Positions 2,399 through 14,727 of a DNA stretch of 20,243 nucleotides are shown here, one piece after another (position 1 is the stretch's first letter; every line of letters begins with the position of its first letter). Below the pieces are notes generated by a model. That model saw nothing but the letters and a program-made list of their open reading frames with translations. It was not told where the DNA came from and did not search any database. Position numbers and translations under genes: made by a program. The DNA comes from a virus. The stretch lies in the UHGV virus genome UHGV-0098135, one strand, 5' to 3'.

Positions 2399-2896
2399 AT
2401 GAAATCATTAACCCTCTTCAATCAACCAATTCGTATCGGTGAAGATGGCATGATCTGCCTCACTGATATGTGGAAAGCCAGTGGTAAAAGTGAATCTGAA
2501 TCGCCTTACCACTACCTGCGAAACAAGCAGACCAAAGAGTTCTTAGCCGAGCTGGAGAAAAACCACGAATCTGTGGTTTTTACTGAGCGCGGTGTACACG
2601 GTGGAACATATGGCGGGAAGTTTGTTGCTTACGATTATGCGGCTTGGTTAAACCCCGGGTTCAAGTACGCGGCCTATAAAGTCCTCGATGACTACTTCAC
2701 CGGAGAACTTCAGCATCGCAACAGCTTAAGTGCGCAGCTCAACATGAAATGTCATGAGTTTGACCAGAAGAAAGACATGGCTAGCTTCTGCGGACAAGGG
2801 CTGGCAGCATGGCGCTATACGAAGCCAGTGTTGGTCGCTGAGATTAACTCCATGGCTAACCAGCTGCAGATTACGATCCCCGGGCTTCCGGGATGA
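2399..2896 (+). CDS. Accessory protein with putative KilA-N-like DNA-binding domain
   Basis: 165-aa ORF with ATG start. N-terminal segment (IRIGEDGMICLTDMWKASGK...YLRNKQTKEFL) resembles the KilA-N pattern from memory. Located in the variable slot between lysis and terminase genes. Confidence 0.55.
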   Translation: MKSLTLFNQPIRIGEDGMICLTDMWKASGKSESESPYHYLRNKQTKEFLAELEKNHESVVFTERGVHGGTYGGKFVAYDYAAWLNPGFKYAAYKVLDDYFTGELQHRNSLSAQLNMKCHEFDQKKDMASFCGQGLAAWRYTKPVLVAEINSMANQLQITIPGLPG

Positions 2897-3156
2897 GTGA
2901 TCGTGTCATTGAATGCGCCTCCAGAGCGGGGCGCGACTTCTCAGAGTTCATGAAAGGCGAGAAGGGCATGATGGAAGCATTGGCCTCGGTGGATGAGTTT
3001 GGCGAGCAGCTGCGCCTCAACGGCTGTGTCAATCATCACTTTGTTAGCTACATGATGCGGAACTCGATCATGCAGGCATTCATGGACATGGCAAAAGCCG
3101 AGAGGAAAGAAGAGCGCCGGCGTAAGCGAGCGGAAGCAAAAGCAAAAGTGAAGTAG
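2893..3156 (+). CDS. Hypothetical protein, 87 aa, with strongly basic Lys/Arg/Glu-rich C-terminal tail; translationally coupled to the upstream gene
   Basis: ATGA start/stop overlap with the preceding ORF; C-terminus AKAERKEERRRKRAEAKAKVK. No function recognised. Confidence 0.55.
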   Translation: MSDRVIECASRAGRDFSEFMKGEKGMMEALASVDEFGEQLRLNGCVNHHFVSYMMRNSIMQAFMDMAKAERKEERRRKRAEAKAKVK

Positions 3157-3450
3157 CCATTACAAAGCCCATTTACGGGTGGGCTTGATAATGAAACCGG
3201 AATTTATTCTGGGTAACCAGTTACGGCAGTACAGCGAAACAACCCAAGCCAGTAAGTGGGGAAATAACACTGGCAGCCACTGAAAGATGAACCTCCTGCC
3301 TTATGGCAAAAAAGATTCTTTGTGGTGGCGGACTGATGGAAAGACATCGGTTATTGCAGAGGCCATTCAATGAGTGGTCTCGACAATGGCTTATACCCTG
3401 CACGGGATAACTTAACTGATATCCCTTTTAACGGATAAACGGAGCCAACA

Positions 3451-3693
3451 ATGGCAGAGATTATTCCCATGACTGAAGAACAGAAATTCCAGTTAGAGAT
3501 TTACAAACTGGTCATGAACCAGAACGCAGCCGCAGAAGAAGCATTTCAGTTCATTGGCACTGACGAGCTGAAGCTTGAGCTATTCAAAATTCACTTCCAG
3601 TCAGGCGGCGCTAATTCGGATATCACGATCCGCACATTCGAAGCGGTACGTAAATCGAAGGAGGCGTTAGACCTGTTCACCGCTGGAGTGTGA
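3451..3693 (+). CDS. Hypothetical protein, 80 aa
   Basis: ATG preceded by GGAG (ACGGAGCCAACAATG); acidic, probably helical; stop is 1 nt before the next ATG (coupled). Confidence 0.6.
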   Translation: MAEIIPMTEEQKFQLEIYKLVMNQNAAAEEAFQFIGTDELKLELFKIHFQSGGANSDITIRTFEAVRKSKEALDLFTAGV

Positions 3694-3694
3694 T

Positions 3695-4084
3695 ATGGCT
3701 AAGGCCAAATGGCACAAACTCCCGGCGTTCACCATTCCGCTGTTTCAAAGTGCACATGTCTACCTCGCAACAACCAGAGAACAGTTTCAGCACGCTGATA
3801 AATTCCTTGGCGGCAGCGGGGATGAGAAGCCATTCAATCTTGGGTTTGCAAGCAACTATGAAAACACTGATACGGGTGAGCGATGCTATCTGATTGGAGT
3901 ATTCGATCAGCAGATCGCTACGCTCGTTCATGAGTGCGCCCACGTCTGCTTTTACGTTTGCTCTGATGTCGGCGTGACGACAAGGCCTGAAGATGCCAAC
4001 GAGACGTACTGTTACATGCTGGACAGGATGGTTAATCACTTCCTGCCATTCATTCAGGAGAAACAAGATGTATCACTGGAATAA
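3695..4084 (+). CDS. Hypothetical protein, 129 aa, with HExxH motif (LVHECAHV) and a downstream Glu; putative minimal zinc-metallopeptidase-like protein
   Basis: Starts 1 nt after the upstream stop. HECAH followed about 20 residues later by PEDANE resembles a gluzincin-type metal site. Function inferred from the motif only. Confidence 0.55.
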   Translation: MAKAKWHKLPAFTIPLFQSAHVYLATTREQFQHADKFLGGSGDEKPFNLGFASNYENTDTGERCYLIGVFDQQIATLVHECAHVCFYVCSDVGVTTRPEDANETYCYMLDRMVNHFLPFIQEKQDVSLE

Positions 4085-4262
4085 TCAATCCCCTTATTGC
4101 CAATGCCAACGCTGCCCGTGCTGCGGGAAGATTGTTAACCAATTTACTGGCAATAATTTCTTCAAGACTGGTTATGGATATGGTGTTGCGGGTAGCGTTA
4201 ATTGCTCTGGGGCTGCTGCTGAAACGACATCAAACACAGGCAAGCAGAAAGGAGCTAAGTAA
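4068..4262 (+). CDS. Possible small Cys-rich protein, 64 aa (CQCQRCPCC cluster)
   Basis: ATG at 4068 preceded by AGGAG (CAGGAGAAACAAGATG); overlaps the 3' end of the upstream ORF by 17 nt; its TAA stop overlaps the next ATG (TAATG). Contained in the track ORF 3993..4262, whose start is not an ATG. Confidence 0.35.
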   Translation: MYHWNNQSPYCQCQRCPCCGKIVNQFTGNNFFKTGYGYGVAGSVNCSGAAAETTSNTGKQKGAK

Positions 4263-4351
4263 TGGTAATCAAAGTTTGTTCAGGCTCTCAGGGCTTCGAC
4301 AACCCATCCAAATTCCGCGATGAATGGGATAAGCAAGCAGAAGGGAAATAA
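4262..4351 (+). CDS. Possible small ORF, 29 aa ([29 protein letters not shown])
   Basis: Strong Shine-Dalgarno AAAGGAG 6 nt upstream of the ATG; TAATG coupling to the upstream ORF; ends 5 nt before the terminase small subunit start. Too short for the ORF track. Confidence 0.3.
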
Positions 4352-4356
4352 TCAAT

Positions 4357-4845
4357 ATGGCAGCACCAAAGGGCAACCGATTTTGGGAGGCCCGCAGTAG
4401 TCATGGGCGAAATCCTAAATTCGAATCGCCTGAGGCGCTGTGGGCTGCTTGTTGTGAATACTTCGAGTGGGCTGATGATAACCCGCTATGGGAGGGTAAG
4501 GTATTTTCATATCAGGGAGAAATAATTAAGGCTAATGTCCCTAAGATGCGAGCCATGACTATTTCAGGATTGTGTACCTTCCTTGATATCACCAGGCAAA
4601 CGTGGGGAACCTTCCGGTCAATGGAAGGTTTTTCTGACGTCACATCACGAGCGGAAGACATCATCTACGACCAGAAATTCTCTGGCGCAGCCGCTGACCT
4701 TCTCAACGCTAACATCATCGCCCGTGATTTGGGCCTCAAAGAGCAGTCGCAAGTTGAAGACGTGACACCTGATAAGGGAGATCGCGATAAGCGGCGCTCT
4801 CGTATCAAGGAGCTATTCAACCGTGGAACTGGACGCGATTCTTGA
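4357..4845 (+). CDS. Terminase small subunit (P22 gp3-like)
   Basis: 162 aa, the size I recall for P22 gp3, and I recall the N-terminus [39 protein letters not shown] as P22 gp3. Sits immediately upstream of the large terminase. Confidence 0.85.
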
Positions 4846-6319
4846 TAACCTGAGCGACGAAGAGCAAATCGAGTTGCTCGAGCTACTCGAAGAAGAAGAG
4901 AACTACCGGAACACACACCTGCTATATGAATTTACGCCATACAGCAAACAGCGTGAGTTCATCGACGCTGGGCATGACTATCCAGAGCGCTGTTTTATGG
5001 CTGGTAACCAGCTTGGTAAGTCATTTACTGGTGCTGCTGAAGTCGCGTTTCACCTTACAGGGCGTTATCCGGGCACAAAAGGCTATCCTGCTGATGGTAA
5101 ATATGGCGGTGAGTGGAAAGGTAAGCGTTTCTATGAGCCTGTTGTCTTCTGGATTGGCGGCGAGACAAACGAGACTGTAACCAAAACGACTCAACGCATC
5201 CTGTGCGGTCGTATCGAAGAGAATGATGAGCCTGGCTACGGTTCCATACCGAAAGAAGACATCATTAGCTGGAAGAAGTCTCCTTTCTTTCCGAACCTTG
5301 TTGATCATCTTCTGGTTAAGCATCACACGGCTGATGGCGTTGAAGATGGCATTTCAATCTGCTACTTCAAACCATACTCGCAAGGCCGTGCTCGCTGGCA
5401 GGGTGACACAATCCACGGCGTGTGGTTTGACGAAGAGCCACCATACAGCATTTATGGAGAAGGGCTTACCCGTACCAACAAATACGGGCAATTCTCAATT
5501 CTGACGTTTACCCCGCTGATGGGGATGTCTGACGTTGTTACCAAGTTCCTGAAGAATCCCAGCAAGTCGCAGAAAGTGGTCAACATGACCATCTACGACG
5601 CTGAGCACTACACCGACGAGCAGAAAGAGCAAATCATCGCATCCTATCCCGAGCATGAGAGAGAGGCGCGTGCTCGCGGTATTCCTACGATGGGTAGTGG
5701 TCGAATCTTCCAGATACCGGAAGAGACTATTAAGTGTCAGCCGTTCGAGTGTCCTGATCACTTCTACGTCATCAATGCAATGGACTTCGGATGGGATCAC
5801 CCACAGGCACATATCCAGCTTTGGTGGGATAAAGACGAGGACGTGATTTATCTTTCTCGCGTCTGGAAGGCCAAACAGAAGAAGGCGACAGAGGCATGGA
5901 GTGCTGTTAAAGCATGGAGCAAAAACACCCCTACAGCTTGGCCTCATGACGGGCATCAGCACGAAAAGGGAGGCGGCGCTCAGCTCAAGGAACAATACGC
6001 CGACGCTGGGTTCGACATGTTGCCAGATCATGCAACATGGCCTGATGGAGGTAATGCGGTCGAACCCGGGATAGCAGAGATACGCGACATGATGCTCGAC
6101 GGTCGTTTCAAGGTATTTAACACCTGCGAGCCATTCTTTGAAGAGTTTCGCCTGTATCACCGCGATGAGAACGGGAAGATCGTCAAGCTAAATGACGACA
6201 TCCTTTCTGCTGTTCGCTATGGCTACATGATGAGGCGTTTTGCAATACAGATGCGAGACATCAAAGATCCTAAAGAGATTGATTACTCAAGCTACAACAT
6301 ACCTTGCGGAGTTGGATGA
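4823..6319 (+). CDS. Terminase large subunit (P22 gp2-like), ATPase/nuclease
   Basis: 498 aa. The start codon at 4823 is GTG, with AAGGAG about 10 nt upstream. Walker-A-like motif AGNQLGKS; overlaps the small subunit by 23 nt; canonical position. Confidence 0.85.
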
Positions 6320-8520
6320 TGGCTGATGATAGAAAGATGGCTGACTGGCATCGCAAGGTGCTGTGCAACTTTGATAATGCCTGGTCAGCAACGCAGGATA
6401 TGCGTGAGCAGATTATTGAGGCTCAACGTTTCGTCCGGGTATCCGGCGCACAGTGGGAAGGCAGCACAAACGCTGGTTACTCATTTGATGAAGGCAGGTT
6501 TGAGCATTACCCGCGCTTTGAACTGAATAAGGTTTCCCGTGAATGTGATCGCATCATTGGCGAGTATCGACAGAATCGCATCAGCGTTAAATTCAGGCCG
6601 AAGGACGATAAGGCATCGGAAGCGTTAGCCGAAAAGATGAACGGCAAATTCCGCGCTGACTATCAGGAAACATCCGGTGGCGAAGCGTGTGATAACGCAT
6701 TTGATGATGCTGTAACGGGCGGATTCGGTTGTTTCCGCATGTGTGCCGATTACGAAGATGAAATGGATCCGAGTAACGAGCAACGCCGTATAAGCCTTCT
6801 TCCTGTTTACGACCCAGCGACATGCGTCTTCTTCGATCAGGACAGCAAGCAATATGACCGCTCTGATGCTATGTGGGCTATGGAAATGTTCTCCATGACG
6901 CCTAAAGCGTTCGAGGCTGAATACCCTGACTCCATCGCGGCAAGTCTTTCTCGTGATGACACTGGTACTCAGTATGACTGGTCAACGCCTGATGCCATCT
7001 ATGTTGGACGCTACTACGAAGTTCGCATAGAGAAGGTGAAGCTCACGGCGTGGCGCAACCCTGTCAGCGGAGAAACGGCAATCTATGATGAAGAGCAAAT
7101 CAAAGATATTGTCGACGAGCTGACCGATGGCGCATTCGAACTGATTGGCGAGCGGACAGTGAAGAAACGCCGCGTTTATTGCGGCCTTCTGTCTGGCGCT
7201 GAATGGCTGGAAGAACCGAAGCGTATTCCGGGCGAACATATTCCTCTCATCCCGGTATATGGGCGTCGCTCATTTGTTGATAATCAGGAACGAATCGAAG
7301 GCCACGCAGCAAAAGCGATGGATGCACAGCGTCTTGAGAACCTGATGGTTTCCATGATTGCAGATAACGCTACTCAGGCGGGCGGTGATGGCATTCCTAT
7401 CGTGGATGTTGATTTCATTCCCGGTCCATTAATGAATCACTGGGCAGAGAGGAATAAGAAAAGACCTGCAGTTCTTCCCATGACCAGCAAGAAGGACAAA
7501 AACGGAACAGTCATTTCAGAAGCTCAGGTTGCTGGCTGGACACCTCCGACACAAATGCCTCCTGCTCTTGCCGGGCTATTGCAGTACACCGGAACGGCTA
7601 TTCAGCAAATTACAGGTGCGTCGCAGCTTGAGAACATGCCGAGCAACGTCGCTACCGATACCGTTGATAGCATCTTTAACCGGATGGACACGCAGTCCTA
7701 TATCTACATGGACAACATGGCTAAATCCATGCGCCGTGCTGGCGTCGTGTGGCTTTCTATGGCTCGTGAAGTCTATGGCAGTGATACGCCGATGCGTATC
7801 GTTAATGAGGACGGCAGCGATGACGTGGCGCTGATGACTGGTGAAGTGGTTGACCGTCAGACAGGGCAGGTTATCGCGCTTAACGACCTTTCGCAGGGTA
7901 ACTATGAAGTGACTGTCGATGTTGGTCAGTCGTTCGCTACTCGCCGTGATGCAACGGTTAAGTCGTTACTTTCCATGCTGGCACTTATCCCACCAGGAAC
8001 GCCGAAGCACGACCTTGTGTCGTCGATGATTCTCGACAATATGGACGGCGAAGGGATGGACGACCTTAAAGAATACAACCGCAATCAGTTGCTTCTGTCT
8101 GGAGTTATCAAGCCGAGAACACCAGAAGAACAGCAGATGGTTGAGCAGGCAAAACAACAACAGGCCAGTCAGCCAGATCCGGCTATGGTTGCAGCGCAAG
8201 GTCAGCTTCTTGCTGGTCAGGCTGAATTGCAGAAAGCGCAGAACGAACAGGCAGCCATTCAGGTTAAAGCATTCCAGGCACAGACTGATGCTCAGGTTGC
8301 AGCGGCAAACGTTGTGAAAATCCTCGCATCTGCTGATAGCCAGCAGAAATCTGATATCCGCGAGGCTCTGAAACTGCTCGGACAGTTCCAGCAACAGCAA
8401 GGAGACAATGCCCGTGCTGATGCAGAGCTTGTCCTGAAAAGTCAGGCACAGGGCCATGCGCAGCGCATGGACATCAGCAGCATCCTGCAAAAATCAACTC
8501 AGCAACAACCACAGCAGTAA
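6319..8520 (+). CDS. Portal protein (P22 gp1-like) with long Gln-rich C-terminal helical extension
   Basis: Start chosen at ATG 6319 ([15 protein letters not shown]...), which aligns with the recalled P22 portal N-terminus MADNENRL...; ATG 6316 is an alternative and the track's 6304 is a TTG. Internal segment IPGEHIPLIPVYG matches the recalled P22 portal IAGEHIPIVPVFG. C-terminal ~140 aa is Q/A-rich. Confidence 0.88.
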   Translation: MADDRKMADWHRKVLCNFDNAWSATQDMREQIIEAQRFVRVSGAQWEGSTNAGYSFDEGRFEHYPRFELNKVSRECDRIIGEYRQNRISVKFRPKDDKASEALAEKMNGKFRADYQETSGGEACDNAFDDAVTGGFGCFRMCADYEDEMDPSNEQRRISLLPVYDPATCVFFDQDSKQYDRSDAMWAMEMFSMTPKAFEAEYPDSIAASLSRDDTGTQYDWSTPDAIYVGRYYEVRIEKVKLTAWRNPVSGETAIYDEEQIKDIVDELTDGAFELIGERTVKKRRVYCGLLSGAEWLEEPKRIPGEHIPLIPVYGRRSFVDNQERIEGHAAKAMDAQRLENLMVSMIADNATQAGGDGIPIVDVDFIPGPLMNHWAERNKKRPAVLPMTSKKDKNGTVISEAQVAGWTPPTQMPPALAGLLQYTGTAIQQITGASQLENMPSNVATDTVDSIFNRMDTQSYIYMDNMAKSMRRAGVVWLSMAREVYGSDTPMRIVNEDGSDDVALMTGEVVDRQTGQVIALNDLSQGNYEVTVDVGQSFATRRDATVKSLLSMLALIPPGTPKHDLVSSMILDNMDGEGMDDLKEYNRNQLLLSGVIKPRTPEEQQMVEQAKQQQASQPDPAMVAAQGQLLAGQAELQKAQNEQAAIQVKAFQAQTDAQVAAANVVKILASADSQQKSDIREALKLLGQFQQQQGDNARADAELVLKSQAQGHAQRMDISSILQKSTQQQPQQ

Positions 8521-13577: not shown

Positions 13578-14032
13578 TGATTACATTCAAACCAACGCGA
13601 AACATCGACCTGATCGAAGCAGTCGGAAATCACCCTGACATTATTGCCGGGAGTAACAACGGTGATGGATACGACTACAAGCCTGAATGCCGTTACTTTG
13701 AGGTGAACGTGCACGGTCAGTTTGGCGGCATTGTTTACTATCAGGAAATTCAGCCGCTTACATTCGATTGCCACGCCATGTACCTGCCAGAGATTCGCGG
13801 CTTCAGCAAGGAAATTGGGCTGGCGTTCTGGCGATACATTCTGACTAACACCACCGTTCAGTGCGTCACATCGTTCGCTGCACGCAAATTCCGCCACGGT
13901 CAGATGTACTGCGCAATGATTGGCCTTAATCGTGTAGGAACCATCAAGAAATACTTCAAAGGCGTGGATGACGTGACATTTTACAGTGCTACACGCGAAG
14001 AACTAATCGACTTCCTGAATCACGGGAGATAG
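13577..14032 (+). CDS. gp14-like protein (position of P22 gene 14; exact role not recognised)
   Basis: 151 aa; TGATG overlap with the needle gene; assignment by synteny (P22 order 4-10-26-14-7-20-16). Confidence 0.6.
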   Translation: MITFKPTRNIDLIEAVGNHPDIIAGSNNGDGYDYKPECRYFEVNVHGQFGGIVYYQEIQPLTFDCHAMYLPEIRGFSKEIGLAFWRYILTNTTVQCVTSFAARKFRHGQMYCAMIGLNRVGTIKKYFKGVDDVTFYSATREELIDFLNHGR

Positions 14033-14034
14033 CC

Positions 14035-14727
14035 ATGTTATATGCATTTAAGCTGGGCAGAAAACTGCGCGGCGAGGAACCTTATTGCCCTGAAAAAGGC
14101 GGGAAAGGTGGTAGCTCTGATAAAAGCGCAAAGTATGCAGCAGAAGCTCAGAAGTATGACGCAGACCTGCAAAATCAGCAGTTCAACACCATCATGAACA
14201 ACCTGAAGCCGTTTACTCCTCTGGCTGAGAAGTATGTCGGCAGCCTCGAGAACTTATCGTCTCTGGAGGGGCAAGGTCAGGCACTTAACCAGTATTACAA
14301 CTCTCAGCAGTACAAAGACCTTGCAGGTCAGGCTCGCTATCAGAGTCTGGCGGCAGCGGAAGCAACAGGTGGATTGGGTTCCACTGCAACCAGTAATCAG
14401 TTAGCAACAATCGCACCAACGCTTGGTCAGCAATGGCTATCTGGACAAATGAACAATTACAACAACCTGGCAAATATCGGTCTTGGCGCTCTTCAGGGGC
14501 AGGCAAACGCCGGGCAAACATATGCCAACAACATGAGTCAGATTTCACAGCAAAGCGCGGCGCTGGCTGCGGCAAACGCCAACCGACCGTCAGCATTGCA
14601 GCAGGGGGTTAGTGGTGCTGCATCCGGTGCGCTTTTGGGTGGTGGCATAGCCAGTGCTCTCGAGCTATCAACTCCGTGGGGTGCTGGTATCGGTGCTGGT
14701 CTTGGTCTGCTTGGCTCGTTGTTTTAA
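14035..14727 (+). CDS. Ejection (injection) protein gp7-like
   Basis: 230 aa; N-terminus MLYAFKLGRKLRGEEPYCPEKGGKGGSS matches the recalled P22 gp7; Gly-rich hydrophobic C-terminus (GGGIASALELSTPWGAGIGAGLGLLGSLF). Confidence 0.8.
   Translation: MLYAFKLGRKLRGEEPYCPEKGGKGGSSDKSAKYAAEAQKYDADLQNQQFNTIMNNLKPFTPLAEKYVGSLENLSSLEGQGQALNQYYNSQQYKDLAGQARYQSLAAAEATGGLGSTATSNQLATIAPTLGQQWLSGQMNNYNNLANIGLGALQGQANAGQTYANNMSQISQQSAALAAANANRPSALQQGVSGAASGALLGGGIASALELSTPWGAGIGAGLGLLGSLF

Follow-up and report, generated by a model that had tools for sequence, protein, structure and literature searches.

UHGV virus genome UHGV-0098135, whose whole stretch of 20,243 nucleotides (nt) is here called the window, is a P22-like prophage of E. 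coli. Between its lysis genes and its terminase genes lie an acidic protein of 80 amino acids (aa) from the DUF2560 family and, 1 nt further on, a 129-aa protein that carries an HExxH motif. Motif conservation and predicted topology support well the reading of the 129-aa protein as an HExxH...E-type zinc hydrolase, and the company its homologues keep in other phages leads us to propose, tentatively, a role in countering host immunity. The two neighbouring genes proved to be separately exchangeable modules. The features on which the argument turns are as follows.

3451-3693, + strand: DUF2560 gene, 80 aa, acidic (PF10834, phrog_571)
3685-3688, + strand: GGAG Shine-Dalgarno site of the HExxH gene, 6 nt before the ATG at 3695 and inside the last DUF2560 codons
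3695-4084, + strand: HExxH gene, 129 aa, the Orf129 equivalent (phrog_1365)
3929-3943, + strand: codons of H79-E80-C81-A82-H83 (HECAH), putative metal-binding/catalytic motif in helix 74-91
3998-4003, + strand: codons of N102-E103; E103 (4001-4003) is the putative third metal ligand, 20 residues after H83
4068-4262, + strand: Cys-rich basic open reading frame (ORF), 64 aa, unannotated
3689-4350, + strand: exchangeable cassette by blastn borders, comprising the HExxH gene and about 270 nt with the Cys-rich ORF

Conservation of the HExxH...E Signature

The 129-aa protein matched phrog_1365 (E = 4.6e-37; residues 1-125 on profile positions 3-121 of 127) and is about 59-61% identical over 124 residues to Orf129 of phage L and orf-129 of ST64T. 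Gp66 of phage g341c and gp70 of epsilon34 belong to the same family. An exhaustive profile search recovered 881 cluster representatives at E ≤ 1e-3, nearly all of them stand-alone proteins of 110-150 aa, and the family is spread over many phage types. No signal peptide or hydrophobic segment was found in the 129-aa sequence.

The original prediction, made from the sequence of the window alone, had singled out the HECAH motif and a Glu in a downstream PEDANE segment as the arrangement of a minimal metallopeptidase. These correspond to residues 79-83 and to E103, the last Glu of PEDANE, and their conservation bears the prediction out. In 38 close homologues H79, E80, H83, N102 and E103 were invariant, and among 55 diverse homologues, reaching down to about 25% identity, the only invariant positions were G50, H79, E80, H83 and E103. 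The motif residues and E103 were also kept in a P22 paralogue, in the 194-aa form of mEp044, in gp24 of the N4-like Pseudomonas phage phCDa and in the homologue of the Escherichia phage U1G, so that the signature is strictly kept from P22-like to N4-like phages. An alignment that included the P22, mEp044 and N4-like copies showed T76, G93 and Y107 to be likewise invariant. Because H79, E80, H83 and E103 remain invariant at such low identity, the HECAH motif is not a chance match.

The prediction had also regarded the protein as belonging to no characterised family. This stands insofar as no function has been characterised, but neither gene is new to databases: both were already catalogued (PF10834; PHROG 1365/Orf129), and Orf129 has long been recorded as a conserved hypothetical protein.

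Two further forms of the family were seen in other phages. An mEp-type form of 180-194 aa (L003 3001-3585 in mEp044; P0116-P0120) has a long C-terminal extension that is first acidic, then Lys-rich, and ends in VPRVMSFKRG. The P22 paralogue (L002 575-952; BK000583 about 13861-14190) has 125 aa, 35% identity and an intact motif; it lies between sieA and mnt in the immI region and is read from the strand that also carries arc-ant and the late operon. Several P22 records leave it unannotated ('none', 'sieA promoter'), and others list it as a 'hypothetical protein'.

Predicted Fold and Relation to Known Metalloproteases

AlphaFold modelling of the 129-aa protein from 36 sequences gave a confident structure, with a predicted local distance difference test (pLDDT) score of 84 and a predicted template modelling (pTM) score of 0.80. 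The model runs strand-strand-helix-strand-strand, followed by the HExxH helix (74-91) and a last helix (103-128) that starts at E103. Against solved structures, the best Foldseek match had E = 0.14; a profile search of PDB sequences returned only myroilysin and astacins (E about 0.1), and a plain sequence search of the PDB gave chance-level matches only. The fold is common among predicted viral structures, which yielded 26 matches at E < 1e-3, from phages of Pseudomonas, Ralstonia, Achromobacter, Erwinia, Acinetobacter and Eggerthella and from crAss-like phages. Nearly all of these carry the label 'uncharacterized', with a few named SprT-like or metalloprotease.

Thermolysin-type gluzincins and minigluzincins have this order of elements, a 20-residue spacing from His to Glu and an 'NE' context. 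The 129-aa protein resembles them in its HExxH on a helix, in an invariant Glu 20 residues on at the start of the next helix, in the 'NE' context, and in the small sheet and backing helix ahead of the motif helix in the model. It differs from them in being phage-encoded and tiny, with no significant sequence or fold match to solved members. Taking sequence and model together, we consider that the protein is likely to be an active metallohydrolase; membership of any named peptidase family is not shown. The family would best be placed as a distinct, uncurated one within the zincin-like hydrolases.

SprT-like/WLM was the only Pfam family with recurrent weak matches around the HExxH helix, and the name stands on some homologue records. 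The SprT-like profile (PF10263) scored 12.8 bits for the 129-aa protein, against a cut-off of 25.6, and matched 6 of the 55 diverse homologues, all below threshold (best E = 0.009). SprT-like proteins take their third zinc ligand from a His close downstream of HExxH. We rejected membership on the sub-threshold score and because the phage family has no conserved His after the motif, and has the invariant Glu instead. Nor do the scores place the protein in TIGR04267, the aKG-HExxH-type peptide beta-hydroxylases (17.9 bits, cut-off 40), or its family in ImmA/IrrE (Peptidase_M78, PF06114), which matched one of the 55 members at E = 0.099.

ImmA/IrrE proteins (COG2856) are small HExxH + Glu proteases, found in phages and mobile elements, each of which cleaves a single specific partner, and they offer a useful model for how so small an HExxH enzyme could work. 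The window has no adjacent XRE-type repressor gene; the neighbours of the HExxH gene are DUF2560 and the Cys-rich ORF. In two remote lineages (L178-L180 and L183), the first or second gene upstream of the HExxH gene is a small one resembling the ribbon-helix-helix (RHH) family (PF01402, a weak match), which may point to an ImmA/ImmR-like arrangement with a regulator or substrate.

DUF2560 and the HExxH Gene as Separate Modules

The 80-aa protein is a member of PF10834 (143.3 bits, cut-off 25; residues 5-76 on the 72-position model) and matches phrog_571. It is acidic, as first described, with an isoelectric point of 4.7, and AlphaFold predicted an all-helical protein of four helices at low confidence (pLDDT 67.5). 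PADLOC gave no match for either the 80-aa or the 129-aa protein.

The original prediction had read the close spacing of the two ORFs as a sign of a co-translated two-component system. The coordinates and the junction TGA-T-ATG were verified in the sequence, in which one T (3694) separates the TGA stop (3691-3693) from the ATG (3695-3697). This 1-nt spacing is real but ordinary for the operon. It is unremarkable because other gene pairs of the same operon overlap by 4 nt (1734/1731 and 2896/2893), and because DUF2560 elsewhere stops 1-3 nt ahead of any next gene, three kinds of terminase gene included. The idea that the ORF pair is a self-transcribed moron was dropped after a promoter scan found no + strand sigma-70-like site nearby.

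We located both families with hidden Markov models in 94 loci centred on HExxH homologues and in 80 centred on DUF2560, 78 of which were usable. No other neighbour of the HExxH gene was nearly as common as DUF2560, which stood directly upstream in 52 of the 94 loci and directly downstream in 6, always 1-3 nt away. It was nearby and non-adjacent in 2 loci and absent within 4 kb in 34. After dereplication at 95% identity, 30 HExxH lineages were left, 12 with an adjacent DUF2560 in either order and 16 with none within 4 kb. Seen from the other gene, 70 of 78 loci whose DUF2560 is 98-100% identical to that of the window had no HExxH gene; at such loci DUF2560 adjoined the terminase gene (with a gap of 2 nt in 21 loci) or another small ORF.

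The borders of homology fell at the gene junction. Among DUF2560-only relatives, blastn homology to the window was lost at 3688-3697 (L100, L142, L099 and L107) and came back at 4351-4354 (L100, L142 and L099), and in HExxH-only relatives it started exactly at 3695. Remote HExxH homologues had no DUF2560. Given these borders, the loci with only one of the two genes and the remote homologues, we regard the genes as separate cassettes, and an obligate two-gene module was not found.

The alternative of a two-component module, in which a co-translated DUF2560 would serve as inhibitor, chaperone, antidote or specificity subunit, gains some support from the frequency of the adjacency, from its persistence across diverged versions of both genes and after inversion of their order, and from the position of the second gene's Shine-Dalgarno site within DUF2560. 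We nevertheless judge it improbable. There are the lineages and near-identical DUF2560 loci in which one gene does without the other, and the ranges of the two families differ: DUF2560 is restricted to Enterobacterales (90 clusters), whereas the HExxH family, with its 881 cluster representatives, occurs in many phage types. Recombination borders lie exactly between the two genes, and DUF2560 is equally tight to terminase genes. Both genes prefer the position just before the terminase, so frequent adjacency is expected without interaction, and the data can be explained without physical contact between the two proteins. DUF2560 is thus a separate accessory gene, often in the same island, and not a required subunit of the HExxH protein. 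The pairing does recur in other loci, but it is facultative and occurs in both orders, and the notion of an obligate toxin-antidote or partner pair did not hold up.

Phage L and ST64T offer the closest comparison. Their Orf129 belongs to the same family and occupies the same pre-terminase slot, with a DUF2560-family gene ahead of it. In ST64T that gene is Orf-118 (L001 2641-2997; E = 2.7e-19), whose annotation adds about 38 residues at the N-terminus, and the order DUF2560 then Orf129 is that of the window. Unlike the window, these phages carry a different allele of the HExxH gene, and the gene that follows it is a decoration-protein gene (Orf-134, phrog_3018) where the window has the Cys-rich ORF.

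Anti-Defence Genes Near the HExxH Gene

The two ORFs sit between Rz/Rz1 and the small terminase, whose gene forms the downstream border of the slot, so that the cargo-slot position given in the original prediction is verified. In P22-like phages this slot is an anti-defence island. Among close enterobacterial relatives, the HExxH gene is directly preceded by a PF13876 gene in one locus (L017, E = 1e-33) and by a gene with the Acb2/Tad1 hairpin PF24729 in another (L025, E = 2e-16). A PF21825 gene lies directly downstream in L043 (E = 9e-22), and a Tad2-like gene lies 1.4 kb upstream in L055 (E = 5e-16). PF13876 is the Acb4 family of sponges that act against the cyclic-oligonucleotide-based antiphage signalling system (CBASS) (10.1101/2024.12.30.630793), while PF11195 is Tad2 and PF21825 the Sequestin family of anti-Thoeris sponges (10.1101/2025.07.12.664507). 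These families have been shown experimentally to be immune-signal sponges (10.1101/2025.07.12.664507; 10.1101/2024.12.30.630793).

With the sequences from these four loci as queries, sponge-family genes were found in 15 of 95 HExxH-centred and 18 of 80 DUF2560-centred loci. Associations that tell more came from remote metagenomic homologues on unrelated contigs: the HExxH gene was directly preceded by a Sequestin gene in P0219 and by a PF13876 gene in P0223, and a Tad2-like gene (P0242) or an Acb2_Tad1_hairpin gene (P0312) lay two and four genes upstream, respectively. Sponge families thus lay within four genes in 4 of the 8 remote contexts examined, the other 4 being short or uninformative. 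A recurrent neighbourhood with validated anti-defence families is therefore observed in unrelated genomes, and the HExxH gene shares with the genes of known anti-defence islands its place beside or near Acb4, Acb2/Tad1, Tad2 and Sequestin in P22-like and unrelated phages. Its product is unlike the sponges themselves, which are non-enzymatic oligomers that bind nucleotide signals, in having a putative enzyme-type metal site.

The window itself holds a vacant position for such a gene. Its segments 3216-3348 and 3350-3697 flank an extra segment of about 390-410 nt in two relatives (L105, 1984-2396; L099, 2008-2396), which encodes an Acb4-family (PF13876) ORF. Because these relatives carry the insertion at about 3349, the 294-nt gap upstream of DUF2560 in the window is an empty site for an Acb4 cassette.

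In phCDa, gp24 is the first gene past a divergent terminase block, in what would, by comparison with N4, be the early, host-takeover region; N4-like homologues lie among small hypothetical genes. This position would fit an early, host-directed role.

Other cargo was noted in the slot. In E. coli EF5-18-41 (NZ_CP063492.1 4138582-4138958), the gene after DUF2560 is annotated as 'ubiquitin carboxyl-hydrolase' and is possibly another counter-defence gene. Since the slot is an anti-defence island, DUF2560 and the Cys-rich ORF are also candidates for such functions. Ten loci (L017, L026, L028, L034, L035, L037-L040 and L090) have a PF18894 gene 3 nt after the HExxH gene (for example L017 4376-5014). 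Its product, a 'putative phage metallopeptidase' of 212 aa (E = 5e-43), has an HELYH motif of its own, so that two different HExxH proteins are encoded side by side.

Proposed Function and Alternatives

We propose that the 129-aa gene product would be a soluble, cytoplasmic, stand-alone zinc-dependent hydrolase of the HExxH...E (gluzincin-like) type, with H79, H83 and E103 as the presumed metal ligands and E80 as the presumed general base that activates water. It would most probably be an endopeptidase with a narrow target. The gene is carried alone, as a cassette, in the accessory island that P22-like phages have between lysis genes and terminase; it would be transcribed with the late genes, and its own GGAG site would serve translation. 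Of the possible roles, the most likely would be host-directed counter-defence, in which the enzyme would cleave an immune or stress protein of the host or, possibly, some other component of immunity. Taken as a whole, the reading of a zinc hydrolase that works alone, is probably a peptidase and is directed against host immunity falls, on sequence and model evidence, just short of an even chance in our estimate. The counter-defence role by itself we hold to be possible and put forward with some reserve.

Several points weigh against this proposal. The counter-defence role is an argument of guilt by association, and sponge genes are about equally common at DUF2560-only loci, which ties them in Enterobacterales to the slot and not to the HExxH gene. 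Neighbouring sponge families therefore lend the originally suggested anti-defence function indirect support, but in enterobacterial phages that support is slot-wide and not specific to this gene. The remote contexts, for their part, are few and short. In P22-like phages the late-operon position would be late for blocking immunity, and the promoter scan revealed no site near the ORF pair. None of the curated profiles of Pfam, NCBIfam and PADLOC scored above threshold for the 129-aa protein, and a literature search found no functional study of the HExxH family or of DUF2560.

A function for the phage or prophage itself, either late processing of a phage protein or exclusion and defence, would suit a late-operon gene directly before the terminase, which in loci of the phage L/ST64T type lies beside a decoration-protein gene. 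The P22 paralogue adjoining sieA in the immI region and the second putative metallopeptidase (PF18894) directly downstream in ten loci could be read in the same way. This alternative appears doubtful, given that the cassette is patchy among close phages. The whole 961-nt region was present in only 16 of 5426 complete E. coli genomes (some part of it matched in 2478), and the cassette is therefore dispensable for assembly. Remote homologues lie among non-structural small genes (RHH, ParB, thioredoxin, deoxynucleoside monophosphate kinase) and, in N4-like phages, in early-type blocks, and no PADLOC defence model was matched. A prohead-protease or assembly role was rejected on the same patchiness and the non-structural contexts of remote homologues.

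An HExxH...E site could also act on a non-peptide substrate, such as a nucleotide immune signal, and so complement the sponges. The recurrence of the family beside sponges of CBASS and Thoeris signals is consistent with this, as are the lack of significant similarity to any peptidase family and the best NCBIfam match, which, though sub-threshold, is a non-protease HExxH enzyme (TIGR04267). HExxH + Glu with this topology is, however, overwhelmingly a peptidase signature, and the signal-degrading phage enzymes known to us use other folds (2H phosphoesterase, metallo-beta-lactamase). We therefore rate a non-peptide substrate as rather improbable. Finally, that the motif is a relic in a non-enzymatic binding or decoy protein, as the very small size and the want of a significant enzyme-family match might suggest, is very improbable, since the putative catalytic and metal residues are among the few family-wide invariants, the pattern expected of an active enzyme.

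Returning to a metal-dependent counter-defence enzyme, the proposal can be widened to the entire family. PHROG 1365/Orf129 might represent unrecognised, widespread stand-alone mini-gluzincins of about 120 aa that enzymatically disable CBASS/Thoeris-type signalling immunity. Their target could be a sensor, an effector or a conjugation intermediate, which they would cleave, or the signal itself, which they would destroy. In this breadth the idea is unlikely, in our view; if true, it would explain why the family travels with Acb4, Acb2/Tad1, Tad2 and Sequestin genes from P22-like to N4-like and uncultured phages.

New here are the family-wide invariance of HExxH...E, the autonomy of the cassette and the recurrent company of sponge genes across unrelated phages. 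To our knowledge, most phage inhibitors of signalling immunity are sponges or nucleases. If the proposal is true, phages would also have a hydrolytic way of escaping immunity, proteolytic or otherwise, in the form of a very small and widely distributed metal-dependent enzyme from the same islands, and a gene seen for some twenty years in P22-like phages, including the unannotated immI copy of P22, would gain a function. The family is a compact test case, easily mutated at H79, E80 and E103.

Remaining Genes of the Window

Outside the HExxH cassette and DUF2560, the window has the following layout, with further virion genes after the portal.

1-489: Q-type antiterminator fragment
581-655, + strand: tRNA-Asn(GTT), between the antiterminator gene and the holin
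661-736, + strand: tRNA-Thr(TGT), between the antiterminator gene and the holin
978-1301: holin
1258-1734: lysozyme
1731-2198: Rz
1915-2145: Rz1
2399-2896, + strand: KilA-N/ORF11CD3 protein, accessory gene of the island (weak PADLOC match PDC-S22, E = 1e-8)
2893-3156, + strand: phrog_875 protein of 87 aa with a Lys/Arg-rich tail, accessory gene of the island
3157-3450: non-coding gap of 294 nt upstream of DUF2560
4357-4845, + strand: small terminase of the P22 gp3 type (PF16677, E = 8e-31; phrog_606, E = 3.5e-71)
4823-6319: TerL
6304-8520: portal

The first 17 nt of the Cys-rich ORF lie within the 3' end of the HExxH gene, and an AGGAG (4056-4060) precedes its start. Its product is basic, with six Cys (CQCQRCPCCGK; CxCxxCxCCG) and a Gly-rich middle. 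It had no PHROG match, and the Prokaryotic Genome Annotation Pipeline makes no call for it in E. coli H6. Across 24 loci, among them one from Atlantibacter (L085, 89% identity), the reading frame stays intact while amino acids differ, and a 47%-identical copy follows an HExxH-DUF2560 pair in L045 (4619-4807). It is possibly a third gene of the cassette. In three other loci (L030, L031 and L033), the gene immediately upstream of the HExxH gene is phrog_875.

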